Source: Pseudomonadota bacterium (GTDB taxonomy: Bacteria > Pseudomonadota > Alphaproteobacteria > Dongiales > Dongiaceae). Taken from it: DNA of 64,000 nucleotides. The position numbers and the translations under genes are program-made. This document shows positions 46,586 through 64,000 of this stretch, one piece after another. Positions within the stretch are counted from its first letter, which is position 1. Every line of letters starts with the position of its first letter. The stretch covers positions 452,313 to 516,312 of the forward strand of contig JAJYUT010000002.1 in NCBI GenBank assembly GCA_021792365.1. Direction: 5' to 3'. The notes beneath the pieces were generated by a model. It was not told the DNA's origin. It did no database searches and saw only the letters and a list, made by a program, of their open reading frames with translations.

Positions 46586-46723
46586 GGTTATCCCCCAAAT
46601 GCAGACAAATTGGCTGCGGCCCCCGAGGACCCTCTGCAGCGATCTAACTGTTTCGGAACCCTATACTAAGATTGTGTCCCTTTGATTGTAGTACCAGATT
46701 TACCATTCCCCCGCACCTGTTTT

Positions 46724-48052
46724 TTAACGCTCGGACAGGGCGGTATCCCTCGCTTTCAGGATCGGCTTCAACAGGTATGCTAGGACCGTTTTCTTTCCCG
46801 TTAAGATATCCACGGTCGCGGTCATGCCGGGAATGATCTGGAGTTCGTTGCCCTCCTTGCCGGTCAGGTAGTTTCGATCGGTGCGCAGGCGCACCCGGAA
46901 GAACAGCTCCTTCTTCTCGTTTTCGATGGCATCTGCGCTGATCTGCTCGACCTTCGCATCCAGGCCGCCATAGATGCTGTAGTCATAAGCCGTGATCTTG
47001 ATCTTGGCGTCCTGGTCTGGGGCGATGAAGCCGCGGTCCTGCGGCCGGATCTGCGCCTCGATCAGCAGGGTGTCCTCGATTGGGACGATCTCCATCAGCT
47101 GCTCGGCGGGCTGCAGCACGGCGCCCAGGGTGTGGAACTTGATCTGCTTCACCGTGCCGTAGACCGGCGAGCGCAGGCTCTGCTCGCTGCCCTGCTCCAC
47201 CGCCCCGTACAGCAGGGCGGCGACCGAGGCCAGCTCCGCGCGGTGCTGGTTCATCTGCTGCGCGGCCTCGGCGCGGAAGGTGGCGTCGATCTCCTTGAGC
47301 TTGGCTTGCACCTCGGCCAGGGCGGCGCGGGCCGGCGGCCGCGAGGCCTCGGCATTGGAGATCTCGGACTGGTATTGCTGCACTTCCTGCTGGGCCCGCA
47401 GCAGGTCGACCTTGGAGGCGATGTTGTTCAGCACCATCGGCTCCAGGATGTTCACCTGCTGCTGCGCGATGTTCAGGCTCTTGCGCGCGGTCGAGACCTT
47501 GGTGTCGATCTGGCGCAGCTCCGATTCCTTGGTCTCGATCTGCTGGTGGAGCGTCGCGCGCTGCGACTGAACCTGCTGCTGGCGGATGATGAAGACCGAT
47601 TTCTCGGTCTCGACCACTTCCGGCGCCTCGGCGATCAGGTCGGCCGGGAAGATGATCTCCGACGGGTCGCTCTTGCCGGCGATCTCCGCCTGGAGGCGCG
47701 CCAGGGCCGCCGAGGACGTCCATTTGCGCTGGCGCAGCTCCGCCTCGTTGGTTTCCAGCTCGGTGTTGTCGAGCACGGCAACCACCTGCCCGGCCTCGAC
47801 GATGTCGCCTTCGCGCACGTTGAGCTGCTTGATCTTGCCGCCCTTGACGCTCTGGATCACCTGGGTCTGGCTGGACGGGATGACCTTGCCCTCGCCGCGC
47901 GTGATCTCGTCCAGCACCGCGTAGTTCGCCCACACCAGGCCGATCACGACGATAGCGACCAGCGTGACCAGCAGCAGGTGGCCGAACAGCTTGGTGCCTT
48001 CGCGCTCCGTCTCGGAGGGGTCGATCCACAGATCCCGGTTGGTCAGCGACAT
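46724..48052 (-). CDS. T1SS periplasmic adaptor (HlyD/LapC-like)
   Basis: One TM, EITRGEGKVIP, coiled coil, LRSPVYGTV, KIKITAYDYSIYGGL and IIPGMTATVDILTGKKTVLAYLLKP. Confidence 0.94.
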   Translation of the reverse strand: MSLTNRDLWIDPSETEREGTKLFGHLLLVTLVAIVVIGLVWANYAVLDEITRGEGKVIPSSQTQVIQSVKGGKIKQLNVREGDIVEAGQVVAVLDNTELETNEAELRQRKWTSSAALARLQAEIAGKSDPSEIIFPADLIAEAPEVVETEKSVFIIRQQQVQSQRATLHQQIETKESELRQIDTKVSTARKSLNIAQQQVNILEPMVLNNIASKVDLLRAQQEVQQYQSEISNAEASRPPARAALAEVQAKLKEIDATFRAEAAQQMNQHRAELASVAALLYGAVEQGSEQSLRSPVYGTVKQIKFHTLGAVLQPAEQLMEIVPIEDTLLIEAQIRPQDRGFIAPDQDAKIKITAYDYSIYGGLDAKVEQISADAIENEKKELFFRVRLRTDRNYLTGKEGNELQIIPGMTATVDILTGKKTVLAYLLKPILKARDTALSER

Positions 48053-48056
48053 ACCC

Positions 48057-50840
48057 CTACTCCCTGGCCTGGACGCGCCCGCCCATCAGGGCCTCGAGCA
48101 CGCCCGATTTCGGACCGTCAGCCACCACCTTGCCACGGTCCAGCACGATCAGCCGGTCGACCAGCGCCAGCATGGAATGCCGGTGCGTCACCAGGATGAT
48201 GGTCTTGCCGCGCGCGATGGTGGCGAGGCGCTGCTTGAAGGCGGCCTCGGTGCTGTTGTCCATGGAGCTGGTCGGCTCGTCGAACACCATGATCTGCGGG
48301 TTGAGCAGCAAGGCGCGTGCGACCGCCACCGACTGCCGCTGCCCGCCGGAGAGCATGCGGCCGTTCTCGCCCACCGGCATGTCGTAGCCGAGCGGATGCT
48401 GCCGCACGAACTGGTCGACGCCGGAAAGCGTCGCGGCGCGGATCACCGACGCCTCGTCCACATAGGGCGCGCCCAGCGTGATGTTGTCCTTCACCGAGCC
48501 GTAGAACAGGTGCGGGTCCTGCAGCACGCAGCCGATGTTCTGCCTGAGGTCGGTCGGGTCGAGCTGGCGGATGTCCGTGCCGTCCACCAGCACCGCGCCT
48601 TCGGTCGGCTCGTAGAGTCCGAGGATCAGGCGCTCGATGGTGGTCTTGCCCGAGCCGATGCGGCCGAGGATGCCGACCCGCTCGCCCGGCTGGACCCGGA
48701 ACGAGACGCCGTCCAGCGCCGCCGTCTGCGCGCTCGGATACTTGAAGGTGACGTTGCGGAACTCGATCGCGCCCTCGATCCGCGGGCGGCGGATGAAGAC
48801 CTTGCCGCGCGGCCGCTCGACCGGCAGCTCCATCAGCTTGTTGAGCCCCTTGAGCGAGGTGAAGGACTGGTGGAAGCGAATGATGAGGCCGGCGATCTGG
48901 CCAAGCGGCGCCATGGCGCGGCCGGTCAGCATCGAGGCGGCGATCAGCGCGCCGGTCGTCATGTAGATGTCGCTCTCGGGACCGGTCGCGAAGATCCGGT
49001 AGCAGCCCCAGACGATGACGCCTGTGGTCGCGAGGTTGCTGGCCAGCATCACGAAATTGATGCCGAGGGTCGACCAGCGCTTCGAGGTCTCCGACGATGC
49101 TGACGAGGCCGCGACATAGCCGTCCCAGTTGCGCTGCATCTGGCCCTCGGCCGAGGTGGCCTTGATCATGTCGAGGCCGTTGATCGCCTCGACCAGGGTG
49201 GCGTGCTTCTGCGAGGTCTCGCGGTAGGAGCGCTCTACCGCCTTGCTCATCGGGAACTGCACCAGGATGCTGACAATGATCACGATCGGGATCAGCACGG
49301 CGGGCACGGTCACCACCGGCCCGGCGATGAGGAAGATGATGACCAGGAAGATCAGGATGAACGGCAGGTCGATCAGCGCCGACAGGCTGGCCGAGGTGAA
49401 GAAGTCGCGCAGCGTCTCGTATTGCTGCACGTTGCTGGCGAAGGCGCCGGAGGATTGCGGGCCGGCCGCCATCTTGATCGACAGGATATGCTCGAAGATC
49501 GCCGAGGAAACCTTGCGGTCCAGCGCCTTGCCCGCCTTGTCCAGGAACACCGCGCGCATGGTGCGCAGGGCGAAGTCGAACAGGTAGATGAGCAGCACGC
49601 CGAGCGCCAGCACCCACAGCGTCTCCTGCGCCTTGTTCGGCACCACGCGGTCATAGACCTGCATGGCGAAGATCGAGGAGGCGATGGTGAAGAGGTTCAT
49701 CAGCAGCGCCGCCACCACGACCTCGACATAGATCGGGGTGTGGCGCATCACCTCGCCCCAGAACCAGTTGCGCTCGCGCGCTTCGGTCATTTCCGAGGAG
49801 CGGCTGTCGAGCCGGATCTTGGGCCGGACCACCAGCATGGTCCCGGTGTACTGCTCCTCGATCTCGGAGACCGGCGCGGTCACGATGCCGTCGAGATTGT
49901 CGGTGGTCGCGATGTCGATCTTGCCGCCCTTGACGGGCGCGAGCATCACGACTGCCTGGTGATCCTTCAGCAGCAGCACGGCGGGCAGGTTGATCGACTT
50001 GGTCTCCGCGAGGGTGCGGCGCACCTTGCTGGCCGCGAGACCGGCATTCTCCGCCGCGCGCACGAACAGGTCCGGCGTCATGCCGGCTTCGCCGATCGGC
50101 AGGCCGGCGGCCAGCGCCGCCAGCGATTTCGGATTCCCGAACAGGCGAGTCAGGATGACGAGGCAGGACAGCAGCGCATCGGACCGCATCTCCACGTCGC
50201 TCAGTTCCGGCAGTCCGGCCTCCGCCGCCATGGCGGGGACATTGGACGCGGCCGGCGTGGGCCGGCCCGCCTGGATACCCGTTGCCTGCATGCCGGTCCC
50301 CTGGACGCCGGCAGGCTGGGCCGCAGGCTGGGCCGCAGGCTGGGCGGCAGGTTGGGCAACAGGTTGGGCGGCAGGTTGGGCGGCCGGCCGAGCGGTGGCT
50401 GACGGCGCGCCCGCGGTTATGTGGGACTGGCCGGAAAGCGGCTGACCGGCAGAGGGTTGCCCAGCCGGTTGCCCAGTAGGTTGCCGGGCGGCGCCCGGCG
50501 CGGGCTGCGCGGCCGGTTGCGCGGGATTGAGGCGGGCGCCCTGGGTGATGGCCGTCTGGAAAGCGTTGTGCGCAGCGTTTGCCGTGGAGGCGGCGGCAAT
50601 GGGCGCAGCGGCAATGGGCGCAGCGGCAATGGGCGCGGCGGCAATGGGTGCGGCCGCAATGGGGGCAGTGGCGCCGGGTGCAGTGGCATTGATCGCCGCC
50701 GGTGCGGGCCCGGCATTCGGCACGACGAACATCGGATCGGCGCGCCGGGCGGCCGCGGTGTCACCCGTCTTGGCGGCGGCCGGGCCGGAATCGTTGGCCG
50801 TAGGCTTGGGTGTGCCCGGCGAGGGCTTGGCGGCGTCCAT
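48057..50840 (-). CDS. T1SS permease/ATPase (LapB/LssB-like) with about 210-aa low-complexity N-terminal extension
   Basis: C39-like domain (DALLSCL...LPAVLLL), MQVYDRVVPN, Walker A GRIGSGKT, LSGGQRQ and VFDEPTSSMD. Confidence 0.94.
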   Translation of the reverse strand: MDAAKPSPGTPKPTANDSGPAAAKTGDTAAARRADPMFVVPNAGPAPAAINATAPGATAPIAAAPIAAAPIAAAPIAAAPIAAASTANAAHNAFQTAITQGARLNPAQPAAQPAPGAARQPTGQPAGQPSAGQPLSGQSHITAGAPSATARPAAQPAAQPVAQPAAQPAAQPAAQPAGVQGTGMQATGIQAGRPTPAASNVPAMAAEAGLPELSDVEMRSDALLSCLVILTRLFGNPKSLAALAAGLPIGEAGMTPDLFVRAAENAGLAASKVRRTLAETKSINLPAVLLLKDHQAVVMLAPVKGGKIDIATTDNLDGIVTAPVSEIEEQYTGTMLVVRPKIRLDSRSSEMTEARERNWFWGEVMRHTPIYVEVVVAALLMNLFTIASSIFAMQVYDRVVPNKAQETLWVLALGVLLIYLFDFALRTMRAVFLDKAGKALDRKVSSAIFEHILSIKMAAGPQSSGAFASNVQQYETLRDFFTSASLSALIDLPFILIFLVIIFLIAGPVVTVPAVLIPIVIIVSILVQFPMSKAVERSYRETSQKHATLVEAINGLDMIKATSAEGQMQRNWDGYVAASSASSETSKRWSTLGINFVMLASNLATTGVIVWGCYRIFATGPESDIYMTTGALIAASMLTGRAMAPLGQIAGLIIRFHQSFTSLKGLNKLMELPVERPRGKVFIRRPRIEGAIEFRNVTFKYPSAQTAALDGVSFRVQPGERVGILGRIGSGKTTIERLILGLYEPTEGAVLVDGTDIRQLDPTDLRQNIGCVLQDPHLFYGSVKDNITLGAPYVDEASVIRAATLSGVDQFVRQHPLGYDMPVGENGRMLSGGQRQSVAVARALLLNPQIMVFDEPTSSMDNSTEAAFKQRLATIARGKTIILVTHRHSMLALVDRLIVLDRGKVVADGPKSGVLEALMGGRVQARE
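50311..50382 (-). repeat. Six tandem 12-bp coding repeats (AQPA/AQPV) in the T1SS ATPase extension
   Basis: Units of GCAGG(C/T)TGGGC(C/G/A) read directly on the + strand. Confidence 0.85.
50593..50667 (-). repeat. Five tandem 15-bp coding repeats (APIAA) in the T1SS ATPase extension
   Basis: Units of GCGGCAATGGGCGCA with few substitutions. Confidence 0.88.
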
Positions 50841-50907: not shown

Positions 50908-51105
50908 GACGTGGCCTGCCTTGCGCGCCGGCACGCAGCCCGGCACCCAAGCATTTATGTCCCGACCGATCCGCGCAAGCCCTCTGCCCATAGCCATCAG
51001 TATAGCAGCGTGCCGCCCCGTTCAGCGACGCCGCGCACGTTTACCCGAAATTTGTTGCCAGCGCCGCACTTTACGCCGGCACAGATATTCACGTCTCCGC
51101 TGCAA

Positions 51106-52671
51106 TCATGACTCGACCGCGATAACCCCCAGGCGGTGCAGGATCGGCACCTCGTCCGACCAGAACCTGTCGAAGAATTGCGCAGCCCGACCCGGGTCGT
51201 CGAGCGGTTTTTCTTCCTTTGCCGGCTTGCTGAAGCGGATGCGCCGGCGCTTCACCTCGCTCAGCAGCCGCTCCTTGAGCTCGCTCTTGTCCTTCCACGG
51301 CTGGCTGCAGAGGGACAGGATCACCGCGAAAACCGGATCGATGCCGATAGCATTGCCCGCGACGGTTGAGACCACCTGCCCGGGGGCCAGGCTGTCGGCC
51401 ACGCGCTTCACCAGAGCGCGGTTGACGGCGAGCGGAATGCGGATCTGCCTGGGGTCGGCGGGGATCGGCGCCGGCCTGCCGGCGCCGGCACAGGGCACGA
51501 CGATGCCGGTGGCGGCCATCAGCGTCATAGTGCGCTCCACGTCGACATTGGCCAGCTTGCGCGCCGCGACCTCCTTGCGCAAATCGGCGATCGACCAGGC
51601 GCCCTGCCCCAGCAGTTCCTTGAAGGCGGGAAAGGCCTGCTCGTCGAACTTCACCTCGCCGCGCGCCACCTTGGCCATGTTGTTGAGGCTCTTGAGGTCG
51701 CGCGCGCTGCCGAACACCTGGCTGTCCATGTTGCGGGCGATCGCGGCCCGGGCGAGCTGCGCATGGCCGCGCACGAACACGTCGCGGCGGAAGCGCTGGT
51801 TCTGCGCCAAATCCTGGAAAAGCTGGCGCAGGCGCGCGCTCGGCTGGGCCTTCACCTTGGCCTGGAGGTCGTCGCCGCCCAGCAGCTCGAGGTGGTTCTC
51901 CGCCAGGGTGGCGGACCCGGCGAAGGTGAGCTTGGCGTTCGCCATCTCGTCCGCCACCTCGCTGCTGTAGAACGGCGTCCAATGCTCGTTCAGGAACTCG
52001 TGGGCGAGGTAGTTGGCGTTGCGCTCCGCCATCTTGGCGGCCATCTTGCCGGCGCTCGGCGCGGCGGCGAAATAGGCGAACTTGGCGCCGACCAGCTCCT
52101 CCACCGACTTGAGCGCGGCGGTGGTGCGCTGGGTCGCGTCGCCCGGCAGGTGGCGCGCCGTCTCGTAGACCAGCTTCTGCAGCGGACCGTCGGCAGCCCA
52201 GCCGGGCAGGCAATTGTAGCTGTTGTAGACGAGGCCCCCGGGCTTCAGCCGCTCGCGGATGATGCGCTGGATGCCGGCGCGCACCTCCGCGCTGACCCAG
52301 GCGTAGACGCCGTGCAGCACGATGAAATCGCATTCCGGCACTTCCTGCGCCGTGAGGTCGAGAAAGCTGCGCTCCAGGAACTCGATATTGCCGATGCCGG
52401 CCGCCCCGGCATAGCGCCGCGCCCAGTCGATATGCGCGGGATTGAAATCGACGCCGAAGAAGCGCCCCTGCGGATGCGCGCCGGCCAGCAGCGTGACCGT
52501 CTGCCCCAGGCCGCAGCCGAGCTCCAGGTAGGTGAAGCCGGGCTCGAGCGGCCGCGGCTGGCAGCCGTTCAGCACCGCGACATAGTTCAGCCAGGCCGGC
52601 GACAGCTCGCGGAAGAAATGCTCGGTGTAGAGGACTTCGGTGACGTAGCCCTGTGACCAGTCGGAGTCCAT
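51106..52671 (-). CDS. Class I SAM-dependent methyltransferase with methyltransferase-regulatory domain (rickettsial PKMT-like)
   Basis: LELGCGLG motif I, GVDFN, DFIVLHGVYAWV, GLVYNSYNCLPGW, YLAHEFLNEHWTPFY and NQRFRRDV; GGGGGA RBS. Confidence 0.85.
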   Translation of the reverse strand: MDSDWSQGYVTEVLYTEHFFRELSPAWLNYVAVLNGCQPRPLEPGFTYLELGCGLGQTVTLLAGAHPQGRFFGVDFNPAHIDWARRYAGAAGIGNIEFLERSFLDLTAQEVPECDFIVLHGVYAWVSAEVRAGIQRIIRERLKPGGLVYNSYNCLPGWAADGPLQKLVYETARHLPGDATQRTTAALKSVEELVGAKFAYFAAAPSAGKMAAKMAERNANYLAHEFLNEHWTPFYSSEVADEMANAKLTFAGSATLAENHLELLGGDDLQAKVKAQPSARLRQLFQDLAQNQRFRRDVFVRGHAQLARAAIARNMDSQVFGSARDLKSLNNMAKVARGEVKFDEQAFPAFKELLGQGAWSIADLRKEVAARKLANVDVERTMTLMAATGIVVPCAGAGRPAPIPADPRQIRIPLAVNRALVKRVADSLAPGQVVSTVAGNAIGIDPVFAVILSLCSQPWKDKSELKERLLSEVKRRRIRFSKPAKEEKPLDDPGRAAQFFDRFWSDEVPILHRLGVIAVES

Positions 52672-52746
52672 GCTTCCCCCAATGGGCGGCGGCGTTTATT
52701 GCCCTGTTCGCCACAGCCCCGCACCACCCACAGCCCGTCGGCGGCG

Positions 52747-52761
52747 GCATGGTTAATGCCA
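52747..52761 (-). promoter_or_regulatory. Candidate sigma54 -24/-12 promoter that also contains a TTAACCAT (CtrA-type) motif
   Basis: Minus strand TGGCATTAACCATGC with GG/GC at canonical spacing, about 75 bp upstream of the methyltransferase ATG. Confidence 0.38.
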
Positions 52762-52849
52762 CGGATTGGCGCGCGCGGTCAAAGCCCATCCTGCCCGCAA
52801 AGCCTGAACATTGCTTAAGCGCGCCCGGCTAATCCCCGGATTTTCGGGC

Positions 52850-52955: not shown

Positions 52956-55900
52956 TTAGTTATTGCCATAGAGGATGTCGCCATTGTTGTCATCCATGGT
53001 CAGACCAGTGACGCCGAGGACGGTGATTCGGAGGTCGTTGCCCACACCGAAACCGTTACCTTCGGCATCAACCGTTATAACCGTGTCACTGCCGACCGTT
53101 TGAATGTTGATTCGGCTGGCCCTCGTGGCTTCGTTGGGATTGCCGAGCGCATCGAAGAGCGGGTTCAGGTCGATTACATCCTGACCGCCGCCGTTGGAAC
53201 TAGCGTCAAAGCCGCTGATCACATCGTTGCCGTCGAGGGCCGAGGTGTAGCGGACAGTGTCGTGGCCGTCTCCGACATTGATCGTGTCGTTCCCCGCGCC
53301 GCCGACGTAGGTGTCGCCACCTTCGCCGCCGTCGAGAATGTCGTCTCCGTCACCGCCATTGATCGTATCACTGCCGTCATTTCCGAACACAATATCATTG
53401 CTCTTGCCGGCATTGATGATGTGAGAGTTGTCGCTGTCCACAATGATCTCCGAGTCGTCGGTCCCGGTGATATTGCCGTTGGACACCGCAGTCACTGTGA
53501 CTTCTGCCGTGGCATTGCCCGCCTTATACGTGAAGTGGCCGACGTCGCCCGGATCGAAGCCGCTATCGGTGTTGACGGTGACGTTTCCACCACCCGTTGT
53601 CACGTCGTCGAAGGTACTGCCACCGTCGAACGCTGTGATCTGACTAATCGTCAACGCATTATCCGCGTCGCTGTCGTTCGCCAACAACGCCCAATGCGGC
53701 ACGCTGAACGAGCTATTGTCGTTGATCGCTGTGATGATCGAATCCGGATTCGCCACCGTCGGATCATCCACCGCCGTCACCGTGATCGTCGCTGTCGCCG
53801 GCGTCACGTCCTCCAAGCCGTGATTGTCGATCGCGGCGTACTGGAACGTGGGCGAACCGTTGAAGTTGGGGTTCGGCACGAAATGCAAGGTGGCCGCATT
53901 GGCAACCGCAAGCACGGTGTCGTTCGCCGCGATCACGATCGTATGCGCAGCGTCGGCATAAAGCGTGCCGTTCGCCGGCAGAGAGATGATCCTGAACGAG
54001 GCCACCGTGCCGTTGGCGTCGGAACCCGAGAGCGAGACCGGGATGTTGGCCGCGTCCTCGGCGCCTGAGCCGGATACGGCATTGGTGCTCGGCCGGATGA
54101 CAACGTCGTTGATGGTGACCGTGCCGGTGTCATCGGCGATCGTCCAGCCAGCGGGCGCGCCCGAGATGACGACGCTGTACTGCTCGTCGTTCTCGACCAG
54201 CCCGTCGGGCAGTGCGTTGACGGGGATCGACGCCGTGGTGGCACCCGCCAGGACCGTGACGCTCACGACGGTCGGCGTGTAGTCCGAACCGTTTCCCGCA
54301 GTGTCACCGACCTTGCTGAAGGTTACGGTGAAGGTGGTATCGGTCGTCACCGCTTCGGACAGCTTCACGGTCAGGTTTGACGTACTGCCCTCGTCCACCG
54401 TCGTGTCGTCGATCGAAACGACCGGCGGCAGATTCTCGATCGTGACCTTGAGCTGCGAGGTGTTGCTCACGTCGCCATCGTTGTCGGTGATCTTGTAGTC
54501 AAACACCTCCGTCTTGTCGCCGCCGGAGATGTTCTTGGGCACGAAGTCGAAGTCGCCGTCGGAGAAGTCGATCGTCATGCGGCCATGGTCGGTATCGAAC
54601 GACACCTCCTTGCCATTGATGGCGGCCGCCTTGCCGTTGGCAACTCCATCGATCACGACCGCACCGGCACCGTCCCAGGTGATCTTGATGTCCAGGTCGT
54701 TGTTGGCGCTGTCGTATTCGAAGTACGACAGGTGCGCCGGACCATCGCCCGGGTTGTCGGGCGTTTTGTCGGCCGGAGCATCCGGATCGCTTTCGTTGTC
54801 CCCGTTCAGGATATTGCCCTCGATCGGCTCGCCGATCGTGCCCGTCAGCGTGGCGGACAGGTCGTTGAAGTCGTCGACCAGGATGACCGTGTTCGGCGGG
54901 CCGTCGTTTCCGTCCGGATCGGCCACATCGTTCAGGTGCTGGTTATTCGCACCGTTCGGAATGGCCGTCCCGAGGCCGACCGAGTAGACATGCTCGATCG
55001 GATTATTCTCGAGCAGTTCGTCCCAGTCCTCCCGCGTACCCTCGGTGATCCGGTTGCCCGAACCGCCGCCGGTGGTCGGCTCGCCGTCCGACAGGAAGTA
55101 GACGAGATTGTCGTGCGTGCCAAAGTCGCCGCGCCCGTCGGTATCCTCGAAGCCGTCGATCGCATCCTGGATCGCCGCTTCATAGTTGGTGAAGCCATTG
55201 CTCTGCGGGATGTCGTCGATCGCGTCGATGGCAGCCTGCAGGCTGAGCCAGGTCGGCTCACGATCGGAGCCGGAGTTGAAGGTGACCAGCATCACCCGAA
55301 CGTCGCCGCCGGTTGCGGCATAGGCGTTGAGCATGTTGATCGCCGCCTGCTTCGCCGCTTCCAGCTTGCTGACGCCCGGGATACCCGACGGATCATTCAT
55401 CGAGCCCGAGTTGTCGAACACCAGCAGGAGGTTGACGTTCTTCGGAGCCGGCTCGCTGCCCGACGCGACGTCGTCGTAGGTGATCGGCGTCTTGTCGACG
55501 TAGACGTCCTTGATGCAGACGGTCAGGTCCGCCGGGTTGCTCTGATCACCGTTGTCGTCGGTGATCTTGTAGGCGAAGTGCTCCTCCTTGTCGCCGCCGT
55601 CGATCGCGCCGGCGATGAAGTCGTAGTCGCCGGTGGAGAGATCGAAGGTCATGCGGCCATGCTCGGTGTCGAACGACACCTTGGTGCCGTTGATCACCGT
55701 GTTCTCGCCGCCGGAAACCTCACCCGGATCCACGTTGCCCACGCCATCCCAGTTGATGGTGATGTCGAGCCCGTTGTCGGTCGGGTGGTCGTACTGGAAG
55801 AACGAGACGTGGCTGAAGCCGTCGCCGACATTGTCCGCGTCGCCCGGCGTAGGCGCGCTGCCATCGCCGTCGACCGCGCCATTCGGGCTCGAGTCGTCAT

Positions 55901-58900
55901 TCTCGATTGAGCCGTCGAGCACGTTGCCTTCGTTCAGCGTCCCGACCGTGCCGGCCAGCGTGGCGGACAGGTCGTTGAAGTCGTCGACCATGATGACCGT
56001 GTTCGGCGGGCCGTCGTTTCCGTCCGGATCGGCCACATCGTTCAGGTGCTGGTTATTCGCACCGTTCGGAATGGCCGTCCCGAGGCCGACCGAGTAGACA
56101 TGCTCGATCGGATTATTCTCGAGCAGTTCGTCCCAGTCCTCCCGCGTACCCTCGGTGATCCGGTTGCCCGAACCGCCGCCGGTGGTCGGCTCGCCGTCCG
56201 ACAGGAAGTAGACGAGATTGTCGTGCGTGCCAAAGTCGCCGCGCCCGTCGGTATCCTCGAAGCCGTCGATCGCATCCTGGATCGCCGCTTCATAGTTGGT
56301 GAAGCCATTGCTCTGCGGGATGTCGTCGATCGCGTCGATGGCAGCCTGCAGGCTGAGCCAGGTCGGCTCACGATCGGAGCCGGAGTTGAAGGTGACCAGC
56401 ATCACCCGAACGTCGCCGCCGGTTGCGGCATAGGCGTTGAGCATGTTGATCGCCGCCTGCTTCGCCGCTTCTAGCTTGCTGACGCCCGGGATACCCGACG
56501 GATCATTCATCGAGCCCGAGTTGTCGAACACCAGCAGCAGGTTGACGTTCTTCGGAGCCGCCTCGTCGCCGCACTTCTTGTCGTCGTAGGCGACGGGGAT
56601 CAGGTTATCGAGGCTCTGCACCTCCGCCTTGGCCTCCACGCTCTGCGAGTTGTTGTCCGGGTCGCACTCCTGGTCGGACGGTTTCTCCACCGCCGTTGCC
56701 GTCGCGGTGAAGTCGGCGGTCGTGCCTGAGGGGGCGCCGACATTCTTGATCTCGATCTGCAGATCGCTGATCGAGCCGACGCCGTCGACCCCGTCGCCGT
56801 CCTTGCTGTCGATTTTCAAGATCAGCGTCGTCGCGGTCGAGCTCGGATCCTTCACCACGCCGGCAGGCAGCGAGCTCAGGAAATTGCCCGTGAACTCAAA
56901 GCCGGCAGGCGCCGTAATCGTGACCTGGTGCGCTTCCGACCCGTCCTTGAAGTCGTCAAAAGTCGCATCCAAGGTCAGTGTGCCGAGCTCGTTGGTGCTG
57001 AACTTATCGCCAACATCGTCGCTGTCGGCGGCCGTGATCGTCACGCTGAGCACGCTGGGATCACCATCGCCGCCGTTGGCATCGTCCTTGCCATCCGCCA
57101 CGGCATCGACCTGCACGAAGGCGTCGTCGTTGGCGGTGTCTTTCAGGCTCGGGTCGAAGTTGCTCTCCGATTCGACCACCGCAGTCACCGTGCCGAGATC
57201 GACGTCGCTGTCCGCCGGCGGAATGACAGTGAAGCTGCCGGCAAAGTCAGTGGTCGTCGCATTGTCGAACAAGATGGTGAGCTTGCCGTCCGCCCCGATC
57301 GTGTCCGTGACGCTGGTATTGGCCTGGTCGAGGCCGGTCCAGACGATCGTGAAGCCGGCCACGCTTGGCGGGAACGTGATCACGATGCTCGTCAGGTGCG
57401 AGCCATCCGTCGTGCTCGCCGTGACGGGGATCGACACGCCCTCGGAATCCTCGGGCACGCAGACCGGATCGGCGTTGGCGCCGAGGGTCACGCTCGCTTC
57501 CGGCGGGTTGCTCTTGCCGTCGATCTTGATCGTCAGCGTGGAGGAGGCCTTGTCGTCGTCGCCGTCCTTGACGGTGTAGTTGAAGACCTCCTGCAGCTGC
57601 TGGCCGGTCTCGAGATCCTTCACCGCCTGCTTGCTCTCATCCAGCACGTATTCGTAGTCGCCGTTGGCGCTCACATAGAGCGTGCCGTAGAGACCCTGGA
57701 TCACGCCGTTGCTGTCGATGTTGCCGTTCTCCGCCGTGTCTTTCCAGGAGATGCTGCCGAACTTGTCGCTGCCCATGGAATCGGCGGTGCCGTCCGTGCC
57801 GTTCGCGTCGGGATCGACCGCCACGTCCACGCCCGTCACCACGTTGCCGGTGGCGATGGTCGGGCCGCCTTCCTTGACGCTGTCGCAATCGGCGTTGGCC
57901 GTCGGCCCGTCATCCTCGAACTTGATGATCTTGCCAAGGTCAACGCTCTTGGTGGCGGTATCGCCGTCGCCATCCGTCACGGTCATCTGCAGCAGCAGCT
58001 TGTTGCTGCCGGTGATGACCGCGGCCGAAGCGCCAGACTCGTCGTGGTCGTTCGAGTTGTTGTGCTCGACCGCGCGGTACTGGTGCACGGTCACGCTGCC
58101 GTCGGCGGCCACGATGATCTTGAACACCAGCTCGTTGGAGCCGGCGGTGCGGCCTTCGATCACGCCACCATTGTTCACCAGGTTCACGGCCTGGTTGCTC
58201 TGCGTGTCGACCAGTCCGGTATTGGCGTTGCCGATGGCCAGCGCGAAGGTCTTGGAATTGGCGCCCGCCGCGCCGTCGGTGCCGAAGTCCACGCTCGCGG
58301 AGAACAGGTTGTTGGCGCTGATGGTTACGTAGCCGATGTCGTCCAGGTCACCCGGCGAATCCGCCTCGTCATCCGAGTTGCCGGTCCCGCCTACTGTCTC
58401 GTCGAGAACCAGGGAGACGTTCTTGAGCTTGAACTCCTGGATCTTCGGGCCGTCATCCTCGAACTTGATGATCGAGCCGAGGTCGACGCAGTCGCTGGCG
58501 CTGTCGTTGTCGCCGTCGGTGACGGTGACATTCAGTAGCACCTTGCCCGGATCCATGATCTCCGGCGAGTTCGACTCGTCGTGGTCGTTCGGGTTGTCGT
58601 GCTCCACCGCGCGCTTCTGGTGGACCGTCACCTCGCCGCTGTCGTCGTCAACCGAGATCGTGAACGCCAGCTCGCCGCCAGCGTTGCCCACGCGGCCTTC
58701 GATCACACCGCTGCCATTCAGCACCAGGACGATCGGCTGGTCGGTCACGGCGTCCACCAGGCCGGACGGCGTGCCGTTGCCGCCGGGGATGGAGAGCGCG
58801 AATACCTTCGCGTTGCTGTCCGCCGCGCCGTCCGTGCCGAAATCGGTGAACTCGCTGAACAGCAGGAAGGCCGGCACCTTGGCGTAGCCGATATCGCCGG

Positions 58901-61900
58901 GAGCACCGGCCCAATCGTCCAGCTCGTTCAGATCGCCCAGGTCGATGTCCCAGATGCTGCCAGCGACCGATTCGTCGAGCACGATCTTCGCGCCGTGGTG
59001 CAGGTTGAGATCGGTCGTCGGCCCGTCATCGTCGAACGAGATGCCGCAGCCGATGTCGACGGTCTCACTGTCCTTGTCGTTGTCGTTGTCGGTGGCGGTA
59101 GCCTTGACGCCGAGGATGCCATCGCCCAGGAACAGCACCTCGTCATGCGCGCCGGGCGCCGGCTCGGTGCCGCCGTGATCGACGGCGCGGTACTGGACGG
59201 AGACGATGTCGCCGCTGTCCTGGTCGAGCCACACCGCGAACACCAGGTGGCCCTCGCCGTCCACGCCGTAGACCACGCCCGAGGGCGCCTGGCACAGCGT
59301 GACCGGCGTGCCGGTCTTGGTGTCGATGAGGTTGGTCTGCTCGCACAGGATCTTGAGCTCGTAGCAGGCCGAGCCGCCATCGGCGCCGAAATTCACCTTG
59401 AACAGCTTCTCGACGTTGTCCGCGGAGGCGCCGATCGGCAGCGGCACGAAGACCGGCAGGCCGTTCAGGGCAGCCTTGATCACATCGGCCGCGTTGTCGA
59501 TCACGTCGCCCTCGACGGTCGAGCCGTCGGCGGGCGTGTTGTTCGGGTGGTTGAGGTCGTCGTAGTCCTGCTGGCTGAGGCTGAGGGACTCGTCCATCGC
59601 GAGGTTCAGCTTCGCGCCGTGGCACTCCTCCACCTTCGGCGTGTCGTCGTCGACAGAGATCTTGATCTTGCCTTCGGCGGAGTCGCCGTCGCCGTCGTAG
59701 CCGTTGACCTTGAACTCGAACTTGAAGTTGTCCTCGTACTTGGTCTCCGTCTGGCTCTTGCCGTCGTCCTGGAACGGATGCTCCAGCGGCTTGTGCAGGC
59801 AGAACTCGAACGCGCCCACGTTGCTGCCGGCGGTGTCGAGGGTGAAGGTGAAGACCTTCTCGTTGCCGTTGATGTAGGCGGTCCAGGTCACCACGCCGGT
59901 GCCGGCGTCGGGCCCGGACTTCACGAAGGTGAGCGCCTCGCCGTCGATGGCGTAGAGGCCGCTGCCACCGACGACCGGGTTGCCCTGGGCGTCGAAGGAG
60001 AGCGTGAGGACAGTGTTCTGGGCCGCGTCCTTGACGGTCAGCTCGCAGATCTCGAGATGGCCCGGCTTGTCGCTGCCGAAGTCGAACTTGATCTTGCCCG
60101 AGGTCTTGGTGTCGCCGCCATCGTCGCCGGGGCCGCCCGGGATGCCTTCCGGCAGCTTGTCCTCGTCGATGTCATCGCTTTCGTTGCGATCCCAATCCAC
60201 CTTCTCGAACACCGGCCCGTCATCTTCGAAGGAGATGCCCTTGCCGATGTCGACGGTCTTGCAGTCGGAGTCGCCGTCCTTGTCCGTCGCGGTCACGGTG
60301 ACGCCGAGCAGGCCGCTGTCGAGGCAGGCCACCTCGTCATGCGCGCCGGGCTTGCCTTCCTCGTCGCCGTGATCGATGGCGCGGAACTGCGCCATGACGA
60401 GCTTGCCGCTGTCCGCGTCGATCCAGATCGCGAACACCACCTCGTTGCCGGCCATGCCCTTCACGATGTCGCCGTGCTTGACCAGCGTGATGCACGCGCC
60501 GGTCTCGGTGTCCCTGAGGTTGGTCTTGCCGTCGCCGCACAGGATGGTCAGGTCGTAGCAGACCGAGCAGCCCTTGTCGGAGCCGAAGTCGATCTTGAAC
60601 AGCTTCTCGGCATTGTCGTGCGCGAAGCCGATCAGGTCCGGGACGTTGCCCGGGAAGATCGCGTCGAAGATGTCGACCACCAGGCTGAGCGGATACTCGT
60701 CGTTCTCGGCCGCCGGGCCGTCCTGCTTGCCGTTCGGCTCGTCGCGGTCGTCGTCACGCGGGAAGATGTCGAGGAAGTGCTTGGCCGTGCTCTCGTCCAC
60801 CGCCAGATTGACCTCGCAGTCGGTGGCGCAGATCACCGGGCCGTCATCCTCGAAGGAGATGCCCTTGCTGATGTCGACGGTCTTCGAGTCCTTGTCGCCG
60901 TCCTTGTCGTAGGCGGTCGCGGTGACGCCGAGCGTGCAATCGTCGAGGAACTTCACCTCGTCATGCGCACCCTTGCCGCCTTCCTCGTCGCCATGATCGA
61001 TCGCGCGGTACTGGGCCGTGACGATCTTGCCGCTGTCGTGGTCGAGCCAGACCGCGAACACCAGGTTGCCGCAGCCGTCGCGGCCCTCCACGATGCCGTA
61101 CTGGTTGGTGCACAGCGTGATGCAGGTGCCGGTTTCGGTGTCGGTGAGGCTGGTGTTGCTGTTGAGGATGGTGAGCTCGTAGCAGATCACGCAGCCCTTG
61201 TCGGTGCCGAAATCCACCTTGAACAGCTTGGCCACGTTGTCCGCGGCCGCGCCGATCGGCGGCGGGCAGGTTTCCAGCCCCGAGCACTCCACCGCGATCT
61301 TGTTCAGGACCTCGTCGTTCTCCGGCGTCCAGCCGTCCTTGATGCCCCAGAAGCCGTGCTGGTTCTGGTCGTACGGACGGTGGCCATGGCCCTCCGACTC
61401 GTCCATCGCCAGGGTCAGCTTGCAGTCGGTGCCGCACACGGTCGGGCCGTCATCCTGGAACACGATGGAGGGATTGCCGTCGCAGCCGTCGAGCGGCTGG
61501 CGCGCGATCACTGCGTCGCCGTCGGCGTCGGTCACCTTCACCTGCAGGTAGATGAGGGCGTTGTCCGCGCAGTCCAGCAGCGTCAGGGATTCGTCGCTGT
61601 CGCAGCCGTCCGGGTGCTTGATGGCGCGGTACTGCGCCAGCTCCAGGTTGCCGGAGTCCGACACGTGCAGCGCGAAGCTGATCGGGCCGTCCTTGCCGCC
61701 GACGCGGCCGACCACGAAGGTCTCGCCGCATTCCTGCACCGTGTAGAGGAAGATCGGCAGGCCGCTCTTGGTGTCGGTGAGGTTGGTCTTCTCGCCGCAG
61801 AAATCCTTGCCGAAGCAGTTGACGATGCTGACCGGCGAAACCTTGCCGGGGCCATCAGCGCCGAAGGCCGCCTCGGGGTCGCTGCTGCCGCCGCTGAGGT

Positions 61901-64000
61901 CGATCTTCAGTTCGGTCTTGGCGTAGCCGATCGCGTCGACGCAGTGCAGCGCGTCCTCGAACTTGTCGAAGCTGTGGAGGTACCAGACATCGTCCTCCTT
62001 CTGCCCGGACGCGTCCGGGTCGTGGTCCCAGGGGAACCACTTGCCGCCGATCTGCTTGCCGGCGGTCTCGTCGTGGACCAGCTTGTTGTCCTCGTCGCAG
62101 AACGAGATCTCGACCTTGCAGGCGTCGGGGCTGTCGTCATCGACGCTCAGCTTCACGCTGCCGTCGGCATGGTCGCCGTCGACGTCGTAGCCGCGCACGG
62201 TGAAGTCGAACTTGAAGTTGTCTTCCCAGGCGCCCTTGCCGTTATCGTGGTTGTTGTCCCAGGGCTTGCCGTTGGTGTCCGGGTGCTCGAGCGGCTGGTG
62301 CAGGCAGAAATCGAACTTGCCGATGTTGTGCCCCTTGGTGTCGAGGCTGAAGGTGAAGACCTTCTCACCAGGGCAGCCCGCGATATAGGCCGTCCAACTC
62401 ACCACGCCGTTGGCGTCCGGGCCCGACTTTTCGAACGCGAGCGCCTTGTTGTCGATCGCGAACAGGCCCAGCCCGCCGACGACCGGGTGGCCTTCGGCGT
62501 TGAACGAGAGCGTGAGCACGGTCTTGCCCGCCGAGTCCTTGACCGTCAGGTCGCGGATCTCGAGATGGCCCGGCTGGTCGGTGCCGAAGTGGAACACCAC
62601 CTTGCCGTCGGCCTTGCGCCCGCCGTCATTGTCGCCCGGGCCGCCGTAATTGCCGTGGGGCAGCGCGTCCTCGTCGATCAAGCCAATGCCGAACAGGCTG
62701 TCGCAATCGTGGCCCCAATCGACCTCGCAGAACCTCGGCCCGTCATCCTCGATCCGCAGATCGACGTGCTGGATCGCATGGTCGCCGTCCTGGTCGGTGG
62801 CGCGGATATAGATGATCGGCTCGCCGTCAATGCCGACGATCGAGAACCCGTCGTCGTGCGCGCTCGGGAACGGGAAGAACGCGCCGTCGACGTCGTGGTT
62901 GATCTGGTGCAGCTGGAAGAAGCTGACCTGGCCGCCATCGTCGATGTTCAGCACGAACACCGCGGTCTCGCCGCCCGCGGCGTCGCCGTTGACGTCGACG
63001 TAGCCGACGACGGTCTGCGCATCGATCTGGCGCACCCAGACGGGCAGCACCGCGGGCTCCGCGCCGACGGCGCTCCAGGTGACCGTGGCGTTGGTCTGCC
63101 GGTCGGCGACAGTCAGGTGCGCGTCGGCCGTCGGGTAGCCGACCGTGCTCTCCTTGACCATGAAGAGCTCGAACGGATGCTCGTTCTCGCCGCTGCCGGA
63201 GAGCGCGCCATAGACCGAGTCGCGCGCCTTCGAGTTGTCCTTATCGAACTCCGTCGCGCCATCGGCGCCGAAGCTGACATGAGCCTGGGCAATGGCCGCG
63301 CCGATGGCACCGCCGAAGCTCTTGCCGTAGGGGACGTCGAAGCCGGCGTCCAGGATCTTGTCGCCCAAGTCGGCGCCGAGGTTGGAGACATAGGGATCGA
63401 AGATAGACACGTCATCGGAGAACGGCTGCTCGCCGAAGGTCTCGTCGTGGGTGATGTCGGCGTCCTTGAGGACGATCTGGAGGCCCTCGCCGCTGCCCTG
63501 GACCTCGCCGAAGAACGGGATGTCGTCGACCGCGCCGAGCGGCAGCACGCCGAAGCCCGAGGAGCCGTCGGAATCCGTGACCTTGAACTTCACCGGCAGG
63601 TCGAGGGTCTGCTCGTTCGCGCCGATCAGGCCTGCGGGCGCCTGGTTGTCGATGTTGTCGTGCAGCGTGAAGCTGACCTTGAACTCGCTCGGCGAGGTGT
63701 ACTCCTCGACGTGGATCTCAAACACCAGGCGCTCGGTGGCGTCGTCGTATTTGCCGTCCTTGTTGCTGTCGATGAAAGCGAAGATGCCGTTGCCATGCAC
63801 GCCGGGCACGGCGGGATTGATCGCGTAGCTGATCTTCTCGCCATCGGAGGTCAGCTTGCTCGGCAGCAGCGCGGGATCGACCGCGAGCTTGCCCGGAGCG
63901 TCGTCCTTGAAGTCGACGGTGATGAGCGCATAGGCGGTCGTGGGCTCGCGGTCGCCATCGGCGCCCTGGCCGTTCTCGTCCTTGTTGTCGAGGTCGCCAG
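52956..64000 (-). CDS. Giant T1SS-secreted RTX adhesin (DUF5801- and T1SS-143-like repeats, 2x VWA, Calx-beta, cadherin-like Ig, RTX repeats); 5' end outside window
   Basis: Frame is open from 63998 to the stop at 52956 (over 3,680 aa). Recurrent FEDDGP / DES / FGxDG / QYRAIxH / DxDGD repeats, two DNSGS MIDAS motifs, GGxGxD nonapeptides at about 53250-53420, and C-terminal DVISGF...DVIDL secretion-signal motif. Confidence 0.93.
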   Translation of the reverse strand, partial: GDLDNKDENGQGADGDREPTTAYALITVDFKDDAPGKLAVDPALLPSKLTSDGEKISYAINPAVPGVHGNGIFAFIDSNKDGKYDDATERLVFEIHVEEYTSPSEFKVSFTLHDNIDNQAPAGLIGANEQTLDLPVKFKVTDSDGSSGFGVLPLGAVDDIPFFGEVQGSGEGLQIVLKDADITHDETFGEQPFSDDVSIFDPYVSNLGADLGDKILDAGFDVPYGKSFGGAIGAAIAQAHVSFGADGATEFDKDNSKARDSVYGALSGSGENEHPFELFMVKESTVGYPTADAHLTVADRQTNATVTWSAVGAEPAVLPVWVRQIDAQTVVGYVDVNGDAAGGETAVFVLNIDDGGQVSFFQLHQINHDVDGAFFPFPSAHDDGFSIVGIDGEPIIYIRATDQDGDHAIQHVDLRIEDDGPRFCEVDWGHDCDSLFGIGLIDEDALPHGNYGGPGDNDGGRKADGKVVFHFGTDQPGHLEIRDLTVKDSAGKTVLTLSFNAEGHPVVGGLGLFAIDNKALAFEKSGPDANGVVSWTAYIAGCPGEKVFTFSLDTKGHNIGKFDFCLHQPLEHPDTNGKPWDNNHDNGKGAWEDNFKFDFTVRGYDVDGDHADGSVKLSVDDDSPDACKVEISFCDEDNKLVHDETAGKQIGGKWFPWDHDPDASGQKEDDVWYLHSFDKFEDALHCVDAIGYAKTELKIDLSGGSSDPEAAFGADGPGKVSPVSIVNCFGKDFCGEKTNLTDTKSGLPIFLYTVQECGETFVVGRVGGKDGPISFALHVSDSGNLELAQYRAIKHPDGCDSDESLTLLDCADNALIYLQVKVTDADGDAVIARQPLDGCDGNPSIVFQDDGPTVCGTDCKLTLAMDESEGHGHRPYDQNQHGFWGIKDGWTPENDEVLNKIAVECSGLETCPPPIGAAADNVAKLFKVDFGTDKGCVICYELTILNSNTSLTDTETGTCITLCTNQYGIVEGRDGCGNLVFAVWLDHDSGKIVTAQYRAIDHGDEEGGKGAHDEVKFLDDCTLGVTATAYDKDGDKDSKTVDISKGISFEDDGPVICATDCEVNLAVDESTAKHFLDIFPRDDDRDEPNGKQDGPAAENDEYPLSLVVDIFDAIFPGNVPDLIGFAHDNAEKLFKIDFGSDKGCSVCYDLTILCGDGKTNLRDTETGACITLVKHGDIVKGMAGNEVVFAIWIDADSGKLVMAQFRAIDHGDEEGKPGAHDEVACLDSGLLGVTVTATDKDGDSDCKTVDIGKGISFEDDGPVFEKVDWDRNESDDIDEDKLPEGIPGGPGDDGGDTKTSGKIKFDFGSDKPGHLEICELTVKDAAQNTVLTLSFDAQGNPVVGGSGLYAIDGEALTFVKSGPDAGTGVVTWTAYINGNEKVFTFTLDTAGSNVGAFEFCLHKPLEHPFQDDGKSQTETKYEDNFKFEFKVNGYDGDGDSAEGKIKISVDDDTPKVEECHGAKLNLAMDESLSLSQQDYDDLNHPNNTPADGSTVEGDVIDNAADVIKAALNGLPVFVPLPIGASADNVEKLFKVNFGADGGSACYELKILCEQTNLIDTKTGTPVTLCQAPSGVVYGVDGEGHLVFAVWLDQDSGDIVSVQYRAVDHGGTEPAPGAHDEVLFLGDGILGVKATATDNDNDKDSETVDIGCGISFDDDGPTTDLNLHHGAKIVLDESVAGSIWDIDLGDLNELDDWAGAPGDIGYAKVPAFLLFSEFTDFGTDGAADSNAKVFALSIPGGNGTPSGLVDAVTDQPIVLVLNGSGVIEGRVGNAGGELAFTISVDDDSGEVTVHQKRAVEHDNPNDHDESNSPEIMDPGKVLLNVTVTDGDNDSASDCVDLGSIIKFEDDGPKIQEFKLKNVSLVLDETVGGTGNSDDEADSPGDLDDIGYVTISANNLFSASVDFGTDGAAGANSKTFALAIGNANTGLVDTQSNQAVNLVNNGGVIEGRTAGSNELVFKIIVAADGSVTVHQYRAVEHNNSNDHDESGASAAVITGSNKLLLQMTVTDGDGDTATKSVDLGKIIKFEDDGPTANADCDSVKEGGPTIATGNVVTGVDVAVDPDANGTDGTADSMGSDKFGSISWKDTAENGNIDSNGVIQGLYGTLYVSANGDYEYVLDESKQAVKDLETGQQLQEVFNYTVKDGDDDKASSTLTIKIDGKSNPPEASVTLGANADPVCVPEDSEGVSIPVTASTTDGSHLTSIVITFPPSVAGFTIVWTGLDQANTSVTDTIGADGKLTILFDNATTTDFAGSFTVIPPADSDVDLGTVTAVVESESNFDPSLKDTANDDAFVQVDAVADGKDDANGGDGDPSVLSVTITAADSDDVGDKFSTNELGTLTLDATFDDFKDGSEAHQVTITAPAGFEFTGNFLSSLPAGVVKDPSSTATTLILKIDSKDGDGVDGVGSISDLQIEIKNVGAPSGTTADFTATATAVEKPSDQECDPDNNSQSVEAKAEVQSLDNLIPVAYDDKKCGDEAAPKNVNLLLVFDNSGSMNDPSGIPGVSKLEAAKQAAINMLNAYAATGGDVRVMLVTFNSGSDREPTWLSLQAAIDAIDDIPQSNGFTNYEAAIQDAIDGFEDTDGRGDFGTHDNLVYFLSDGEPTTGGGSGNRITEGTREDWDELLENNPIEHVYSVGLGTAIPNGANNQHLNDVADPDGNDGPPNTVIMVDDFNDLSATLAGTVGTLNEGNVLDGSIENDDSSPNGAVDGDGSAPTPGDADNVGDGFSHVSFFQYDHPTDNGLDITINWDGVGNVDPGEVSGGENTVINGTKVSFDTEHGRMTFDLSTGDYDFIAGAIDGGDKEEHFAYKITDDNGDQSNPADLTVCIKDVYVDKTPITYDDVASGSEPAPKNVNLLLVFDNSGSMNDPSGIPGVSKLEAAKQAAINMLNAYAATGGDVRVMLVTFNSGSDREPTWLSLQAAIDAIDDIPQSNGFTNYEAAIQDAIDGFEDTDGRGDFGTHDNLVYFLSDGEPTTGGGSGNRITEGTREDWDELLENNPIEHVYSVGLGTAIPNGANNQHLNDVADPDGNDGPPNTVILVDDFNDLSATLTGTIGEPIEGNILNGDNESDPDAPADKTPDNPGDGPAHLSYFEYDSANNDLDIKITWDGAGAVVIDGVANGKAAAINGKEVSFDTDHGRMTIDFSDGDFDFVPKNISGGDKTEVFDYKITDNDGDVSNTSQLKVTIENLPPVVSIDDTTVDEGSTSNLTVKLSEAVTTDTTFTVTFSKVGDTAGNGSDYTPTVVSVTVLAGATTASIPVNALPDGLVENDEQYSVVISGAPAGWTIADDTGTVTINDVVIRPSTNAVSGSGAEDAANIPVSLSGSDANGTVASFRIISLPANGTLYADAAHTIVIAANDTVLAVANAATLHFVPNPNFNGSPTFQYAAIDNHGLEDVTPATATITVTAVDDPTVANPDSIITAINDNSSFSVPHWALLANDSDADNALTISQITAFDGGSTFDDVTTGGGNVTVNTDSGFDPGDVGHFTYKAGNATAEVTVTAVSNGNITGTDDSEIIVDSDNSHIINAGKSNDIVFGNDGSDTINGGDGDDILDGGEGGDTYVGGAGNDTINVGDGHDTVRYTSALDGNDVISGFDASSNGGGQDVIDLNPLFDALGNPNEATRASRINIQTVGSDTVITVDAEGNGFGVGNDLRITVLGVTGLTMDDNNGDILYGNN
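54846..55450 (-). repeat. VWA-encoding 605-bp direct repeat, C-terminal copy
   Basis: Matches 55956-56560 (offset 1110 bp); three mismatches seen by eye. Confidence 0.9.
55956..56560 (-). repeat. VWA-encoding 605-bp direct repeat, N-terminal copy
   Basis: Matches 54846-55450; encodes NVNLLLVFDNSGS...FNDLSATL. Confidence 0.9.

Follow-up and report, generated by a model that had tools for sequence, protein, structure and literature searches.

The cysteine (Cys) content of a giant RTX adhesin from a Dongia species breaks the rule of its protein family. We analysed a window of 64,000 nucleotides (nt), i.e., positions 452,313 to 516,312 of contig JAJYUT010000002.1 (assembly GCA_021792365.1; Dongiaceae, Alphaproteobacteria), in which the adhesin gene covers positions 52956-63998 on the reverse strand. 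Its product contains a block of six tandem repeats with a Cys density of 3.1%, far above what is usual in the DUF5801 family. The reading frame is still open at the window end. Its start (MATDSTIL) is found about 741 nt past it (contig C21), i.e., 247 further codons complete a protein of 3927 amino acids (aa), of which the window holds residues 248-3927. A 3927-aa NCBI protein record from the same 90% cluster agrees with this length. Unless the full protein is named, residue numbers refer to the visible 3680-aa translation of 52956-63998.

The sequence-only reading of this stretch had placed 38 of 44 visible Cys in a block of about 1,230 aa at 59046-62729, flanked by Cys-free ends. On the translation this is exact: the 38 Cys lie within residues 424-1651, while the N-terminal 423 and the C-terminal 852 of the 3680 visible residues are without Cys. 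The comparison of the block with the remainder of the adhesin (38/1228 vs. 6/2452 Cys) yields a Fisher P of 3.7e-13. Within the full protein, the block corresponds to residues 671-1898, i.e., to the N-proximal stalk. All Cys motifs quoted in that reading could be located, namely CVIC (936) and CSVC (1144) for CxxC, CGTDC (855), CATDC (1057) and CITLC (959) for CxxxC, as well as the pairs CKVEISFC (627) and CSGLETC (905). An independent metagenome fragment (P0101, ENA) agrees at 98% identity and in each of the 32 Cys of the overlap, such that the block is no assembly artefact.

Repeats were bounded by their DDxP motifs and assigned to four types (A-D) with purpose-built hidden Markov models. 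The respective features, all on the reverse strand, are as follows.

52956-63998, reverse strand: giant RTX adhesin gene, residues 248-3927 of 3927 aa within the window
59046-62729, reverse strand: Cys-rich block, residues 424-1651, 38 Cys
62736-63521, reverse strand: R1, divergent DUF5801-like repeat, residues ~160-421, 0 Cys
62127-62735, reverse strand: R2, type A (T1SS-143-like), residues 422-624, 4 Cys
61443-62126, reverse strand: R3, type B, residues 625-852, 9 Cys
60837-61442, reverse strand: R4, type C, residues 853-1054, 10 Cys
60213-60836, reverse strand: R5, type C, residues 1055-1262, 8 Cys
59637-60212, reverse strand: R6, type A, residues 1263-1454, 2 Cys
59019-59636, reverse strand: R7, type C, residues 1455-1660, 5 Cys
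57903-59018, reverse strand: R8 and R9, type D, residues 1661-2032, 1 and 0 Cys

As Cys-poor neighbours on one chain, R8 and R9 serve as an internal control. The repeat alignments also bear out that the Cys occupy variable positions of otherwise ordinary repeats, as had been suspected from the sequence.

Cysteine density among relatives

RTX proteins and other type I cargo are near Cys-free, a textbook trait that is usually attributed to the bypass of the Dsb system and to folding by calcium. According to PMC6891781, RTX proteins mostly contain no more than a single Cys and are without disulfides. Our homologue counts agree with this picture, on which the sequence-only reading had relied. That reading had also asked in advance whether a comparable density is routine in this repeat family. 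It is not: 231 pooled homologues have 401 Cys in 730,922 residues (0.055%), and 144/231 are Cys-free. The block thus shows 56 times the homologue mean, given that only 0.67 Cys are expected per 1228 aa (Poisson P about 3e-52).

With regard to individual relatives, most of the 99 large homologues from a search of 5.8 billion proteins lack Cys over lengths of 2000-6000 aa. Comparable blocks are limited to P0002, P0003 and P0004, which originate from soil and other metagenomes (37, 55 and 62 Cys per densest 1228 aa). A further 137 proteins, 82 of them Cys-free, came from searching 1.84 billion representatives exhaustively with phmmer. The Cys-rich ones among these additions are P0101 from the same species and the 62%-identical P0108, both fragments. 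Orthologues from the same genus, one of which reaches 5030 aa (genome G006), contain 0-19 Cys, with no more than 12 in any 1228 aa. The other RTX giants of the genome studied here have 0-3 Cys. Querying R3-R5 against the genome-contig collection, own genome left out, returned no relatives, and we found no description of Cys-rich RTX adhesins in the literature searched.

To trace how the Cys are distributed, Cys per repeat were counted by type over 110 proteins. The counts are bimodal for type B (0-1 Cys in 15 repeats, 9-12 in 6) and type C (0-1 in 36 repeats, 5-10 in 7), which fits a cooperative gain of partners. Type A repeats mostly have 0-4 Cys, with four repeats at 9-14, and the 238 copies of type D have 0-2. 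The same A, B and C types are found at 48-50% identity in P0005/P0006 with 1 aligned Cys, i.e., the enrichment arose within one clade. At 50% identity, P0004 has 15 shared Cys and 15 further ones. Within this small clade, the anciently diverged types A, B and C were enriched in parallel and gained roughly 5-14 Cys each. The alignment columns involved mostly differ between the types, and both type D and the C-terminal 2000 aa remained Cys-poor.

The clade's Cys sit on loops and in variable columns that usually hold small or polar residues; A, G, S, T, D or N are what the Cys-free counterparts mostly show there. Both the D content (13-14%) and the DxDGD calcium motifs are the same in Cys-rich repeats, such that calcium binding is probably kept. 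A replacement of calcium by disulfides is ruled out on the same grounds. Some Cys predate the expansion. That is, the first type A repeat of Cys-poor Dongia orthologues has two to four, among which the R2 Cys at F-C-x-VDWG and FDF-C-L recur. We also observed a lone Cys at the start of type B (DDDSPDA-C-K; residue 627), which is conserved in otherwise Cys-poor orthologues (P0006, P0015, P0016, L010).

Outside this clade, the unrelated P0211 (2334 aa, from a Verrucomicrobiales metagenome-assembled genome) has T1SS-143-like repeats (~300-1150) with Cys/His/Asp-rich inserts that show about five Cys per repeat and HHHH runs. This may represent an independent acquisition of Cys in such repeats.

Predicted repeat structure and the state of the cysteines

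The adhesin repeats are calcium-type DUF5801 beta sandwiches that retain the acidic calcium-site motifs. AlphaFold 2 (AF2) predicts a beta sandwich for both R4 and R3, with a predicted local distance difference test (pLDDT) score of 80.5 and 83.4, respectively. In the R3 model, 8/9 Cys are placed in loops or at strand ends. A Foldseek search of the PDB with R4 gave 9q5u as the sole significant match (E 1.9e-6, probability 1.0). This Aeromonas salmonicida structure ('putative carbohydrate binding module and split domain') has a fold like R4, but only 18% identity and a TM-score of 0.38 over 144 columns. Mean-field direct coupling analysis (DCA) of 1155 Cys-poor repeats (effective number Meff 860) yields consistent beta ladders and a cluster of D85, D183, D185 and D187. 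That is, it couples FGxD (D85; R4 model positions 83-85, residues 931-933) with the DxDGD loop (183-187, residues 1031-1035). We regard these four positions as the probable calcium site conserved in DUF5801 repeats.

For the Cys themselves, we tentatively favour, at somewhat less than even confidence, that they are exported reduced and oxidised outside the cell to disulfides which reinforce or cross-link the cell-proximal stalk. The chain would be synthesised and pass the secretion channel unfolded and fully reduced, for which reason we propose that Cys are no hindrance to secretion. The repeats would then fold with Ca2+ outside the cell, where neighbouring Cys would be oxidised to disulfides by O2 or trace metals without Dsb enzymes. 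A conserved framework, e.g., the invariant Cys of type B, would staple loops within a repeat, and surplus unpaired Cys could join adjacent repeats or adjacent adhesin molecules. The net result would be a stalk that, where it is closest to the outer membrane, is reinforced or cross-linked covalently and independently of calcium.

Several observations argue for such disulfides. First, 8 Cys are invariant in 6/6 Cys-rich repeats of type B. Second, the Cys of columns c5 and c8 in type C come and go together: 6/7 repeats have both and the seventh has neither. CSGLETC, found in R4 only, likewise occurs as a pair. Furthermore, a Cys of one copy can stand 1-2 residues away from its counterpart in another (115/117, 169/171/173, 196/197), a positional wobble that is expected if the link between two structural elements is preserved. 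The AF2 models (pLDDT 80-83), which place the Cys in ordered parts, are also in line with this. Finally, there is a module of ~260 residues (CVPED...EC.P.N) with one Cys per end, which occurs four times in tandem in a paralogue encoded upstream and once each in P0001 and P0028. Judged from its sequence, it may serve as a lineage precedent for paired Cys. In the main adhesin, one such module is found in the distal part (Cys 2180 and 2445).

Other results weigh against this reading in its simple form, with all Cys paired. An odd number of Cys is found in 11/17 Cys-rich repeats, i.e., not every Cys is paired inside its repeat. Between best-matching repeats, Cys are kept in 68% of cases vs. 59% for other residues, and 106 Cys are lineage-specific; true structural disulfides are usually near-invariant. 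These values were computed per best-matching repeat after a colinear alignment of the whole block had put Cys conservation under the mean identity, partly due to differing repeat orders. The DCA contacts show no enrichment of Cys-Cys columns and even fall below random for the strictest cut-off, a negative result of low power for loops, given that loop and variable columns carry little signal and the model to which the type B rows were fitted is one of type C. In the R4 model, both CVIC (model positions 88-91; strand E87-96) and CITLC (111-115; strand E111-116) are predicted to lie within strands, where the Cys of the CxxC and of the strand CxxxC could not pair mutually. No oxidase or dedicated partner gene separates Cys-rich from Cys-poor loci among the loci compared. 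The methyltransferase gene next to the adhesin was considered as a Cys-dedicated partner and ruled out, since it is equally conserved beside Cys-poor orthologues.

The odd counts would also be expected if the disulfides were mainly intermolecular. In this case, they would connect neighbouring adhesins, the upstream paralogue (same N-terminus and transporter) or matrix proteins into a covalent surface layer or biofilm matrix. By analogy to the anchoring in the LapA model, chains held at the outer membrane may stand side by side with their N-proximal blocks, and the upstream adhesin has a near-identical N-terminal 240 aa. Nevertheless, we consider this scenario improbable: there is no sequence sign of oligomerisation, the 8-Cys core of type B resembles an intradomain framework, and the upstream paralogue has only paired Cys at its module ends and no Cys-rich stalk.

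Odd counts, the missing enrichment of predicted Cys-column contacts and the mostly loop or strand-end location in R3 are furthermore compatible with Cys that stay largely reduced and reactive. They could then bind soft metals (Cu, Zn, Cd, Fe), capture electrophiles such as the quinones of plant or soil surfaces, or serve in redox buffering or sensing, i.e., thiol density would be selected rather than pairs. In agreement with this, Cys positions turn over while the density is maintained, and Cys prefer variable columns (conservation 0.34 vs. 0.46 overall). His, Lys and Trp increase along with Cys in the Cys-rich repeats, vicinal CC are present in P0003 and P0004, and the inserts of the unrelated P0211 combine Cys with His and Asp. 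On the other hand, outside an aerobic cell one would not expect exposed thiols to remain reduced, and Dongia is described as aerobic with the sequences at hand coming from soil. Neither Pfam nor NCBIfam recognises a metal-binding family, no metal-binding motif was recognised, and CxxCH is absent from the adhesin. Together with the unfolded export, the latter also rules out heme or Fe-S attachment. Within a strand, the side chains of residues i and i+3 are on opposite sides, such that the R4 CxxC and CxxxC motifs are, according to the model, unlikely to be thioredoxin-like or chelating. The even, invariant core of type B does not fit either. Reduced, reactive Cys are thus unlikely in our view. 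With regard to the functions listed by the sequence-only reading (metal binding, redox sensing, extracellular disulfides, cross-linking of adhesins), it is the metal-chelating or redox role of CxxC and CxxxC that is weakened by the predicted strand location in R4; the others are candidate functions.

Finally, the Cys might have no dedicated function. Relaxed selection against Cys would let their number drift towards the level given by composition, spread by duplication or gene conversion. Composition alone predicts 1.2-2.4% Cys, and the block is only modestly above this range. Drift would also explain why Cys sit at the most variable columns and are barely better conserved than other residues. 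Moreover, duplication and shuffling of repeats are evident from their order (A-B-C-C-A-C in P0001 vs. A-B-A-B-C in P0004). However, the remaining chain (0.24%) is still 5-10 fold below the composition-only expectation, i.e., selection against Cys still operates in the adhesin. As about half of the positions are conserved, Cys amount to ~6% at free positions, and P0004 reaches 5% overall. Bimodal counts (0-1 vs. 5-12 in types B and C) are unlike gradual drift. The same holds for 8 Cys that are invariant across type B copies of 55-77% identity and for a parallel enrichment in three repeat types that is limited to A, B and C. The restriction to three types, the bimodality, the type B core and the density of P0004 argue for selection and not for a simple relaxation, and we regard an absence of function as quite unlikely.

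Adhesin gene and type I secretion locus

On all sequence criteria tested, the protein fits the DUF5801/DDxP RTX adhesins, and Cys is its one marked departure. Its identification as a type I-secreted RTX adhesin of DUF5801/T1SS-143 repeats, already made in the sequence-only reading, is supported by Pfam, NCBIfam and the adjacent secretion genes. Pfam reports DUF5801 eight times (E 6e-166), VWA twice, Calx-beta, Cadherin_4 and HemolysinCabind. The DUF5801 model PF19116 scores 545 bits over 8 stretches (cut-off 27), T1SS_rpt_143 of NCBIfam (TIGR03660) 135.8 bits (cut-off 66) and HemolysinCabind 25.1 bits (cut-off 23), while NCBIfam matches to the RTX block are weak. Nine D[DE]xP boundaries are spaced by 181-262 residues. 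Further features of the adhesin and its neighbourhood are listed below.

52956-53420, reverse strand: C-terminal RTX nonapeptide repeats (GGxGxD three times, residues 3548-3574 of 3680) and, behind them, the presumed type I secretion signal
54440-56560, reverse strand: two tandem VWA modules, distal and outside the Cys-rich block
51106-52671, reverse strand: S-adenosylmethionine (SAM) methyltransferase, 521 aa, MethyTransf_Reg domain, sole gene between adhesin and ABC transporter
48057-50840, reverse strand: type I secretion ABC transporter with N-terminal C39-like domain
46724-48052, reverse strand: HlyD-family membrane fusion protein
45176-46585, reverse strand: TolC-like outer membrane factor

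The ABC, HlyD and TolC genes are co-oriented directly downstream of the adhesin (45176-50840), and their order is repeated in the orthologous contig L020. We read the protein as a LapA-style RTX adhesin that a Dongia species is predicted to export by this type I system. Read from its first ATG, the ABC transporter has an Ala/Pro-rich low-complexity N-terminus of ~215 aa (50200-50840) before the C39-like domain; the true start may be further downstream. The methyltransferases encoded next to the adhesins of other Dongia genomes, Cys-poor adhesins among them, are 83-85% identical to it. It is the real gene at this position, i.e., an overlapping open reading frame of 566 aa (51089-52789) was discarded as wrong frame.

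The VWA modules are probably ligand-binding. Their cores carry an identical run of 187 aa (from residues 2483 and 2853), which suggests a very recent duplication or gene conversion.

A dialanine motif (TAAG, within IQTAAGPAAG) is located at about residue 127 of the full protein, following a conserved N-terminal region of ~125 residues. The genome has one LapG-like Peptidase_C93 gene (C28:988162-988527, 69.7 bits). Motif and gene suggest a LapA-style retention and release of the adhesin. The NCBIfam retention-module models did not match within the first 410 residues, where only a weak T1SS-143 match was obtained. The N-terminus is conserved in orthologues and in the upstream paralogue. The latter is a second RTX adhesin (~2112 aa; C21:517423-524091, reverse strand), located directly upstream and just past the right end of the window. 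Its N-terminal 240 aa are those found near-identical to the main adhesin's, and it has four repeats of ~300 aa that start with P[IV]CVPEDS, end with DEEC[DA]PNNN and hold two Cys each.

Relation to known systems and significance

The giant DDxP/DUF5801 proteins, e.g., RtxA of Legionella pneumophila and those surveyed in PMC7730722, share tandem modules of 180-230 aa ending with DDxP, PF19116/TIGR03660 matches, C-terminal RTX repeats and an adjacent type I system with the adhesin studied here. Legionella RtxA is a direct match in our homologue search, but has 0 Cys in 2100-5700 aa compared to 38 in six repeats here. The DDxP survey does not mention Cys content except for the cysteine protease LapG (PMC7730722).

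A similar layout, i.e., N-terminal region, extender, distal VWA/Calx-beta/cadherin-like domains, RTX and C-terminal signal, is known from LapA (Pseudomonas fluorescens), MpIBP (Marinomonas primoryensis) and FrhA (Vibrio cholerae). The TAAG motif and the LapG-like gene may be a further correspondence to the LapA-type systems. In contrast, their extenders are BIg repeats, while here we find DUF5801 sandwiches that resemble split domains. The Cys-rich stalk and the missing match to retention-module models set the adhesin further apart.

With regard to Cys in secreted proteins, class II microcins such as MccV are type I secreted and have disulfides. For CdrA, a two-partner secretion substrate, a 'cysteine hook' is cited in a LapA preprint. 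Both cases illustrate that Cys can traverse Gram-negative export and form functional disulfides. However, only one or two Cys are involved there, and the proteins are either small peptides or a type V substrate with a passage through the Dsb-containing periplasm, whereas the adhesin has dozens in a one-step passenger of megadalton scale. Among natural passengers of one-step type I secretion, the adhesins of this soil clade could be the first that are rich in disulfides or thiols. A stalk that is normally Cys-free and stiffened by calcium would have been rebuilt into one that is covalently stapled or redox-switchable, folds oxidatively outside the cell without Dsb and is possibly cross-linked between molecules on the cell surface. 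We consider this possible, at rather low confidence.

With a natural clade in which one defined chain segment departs from the Cys rule, it becomes testable whether the avoidance of Cys is due to the secretion route or to folding outside the cell. A second testable question is whether disulfides can form productively on a megaprotein secreted in one step. Since the repeat types exist in Cys-free and Cys-rich form at ~50% identity, they provide matched natural controls for effects of Cys on the mechanics and chemistry of the stalk. Such controls are also useful to the engineering of type I secretion cargo and of protein-based materials.

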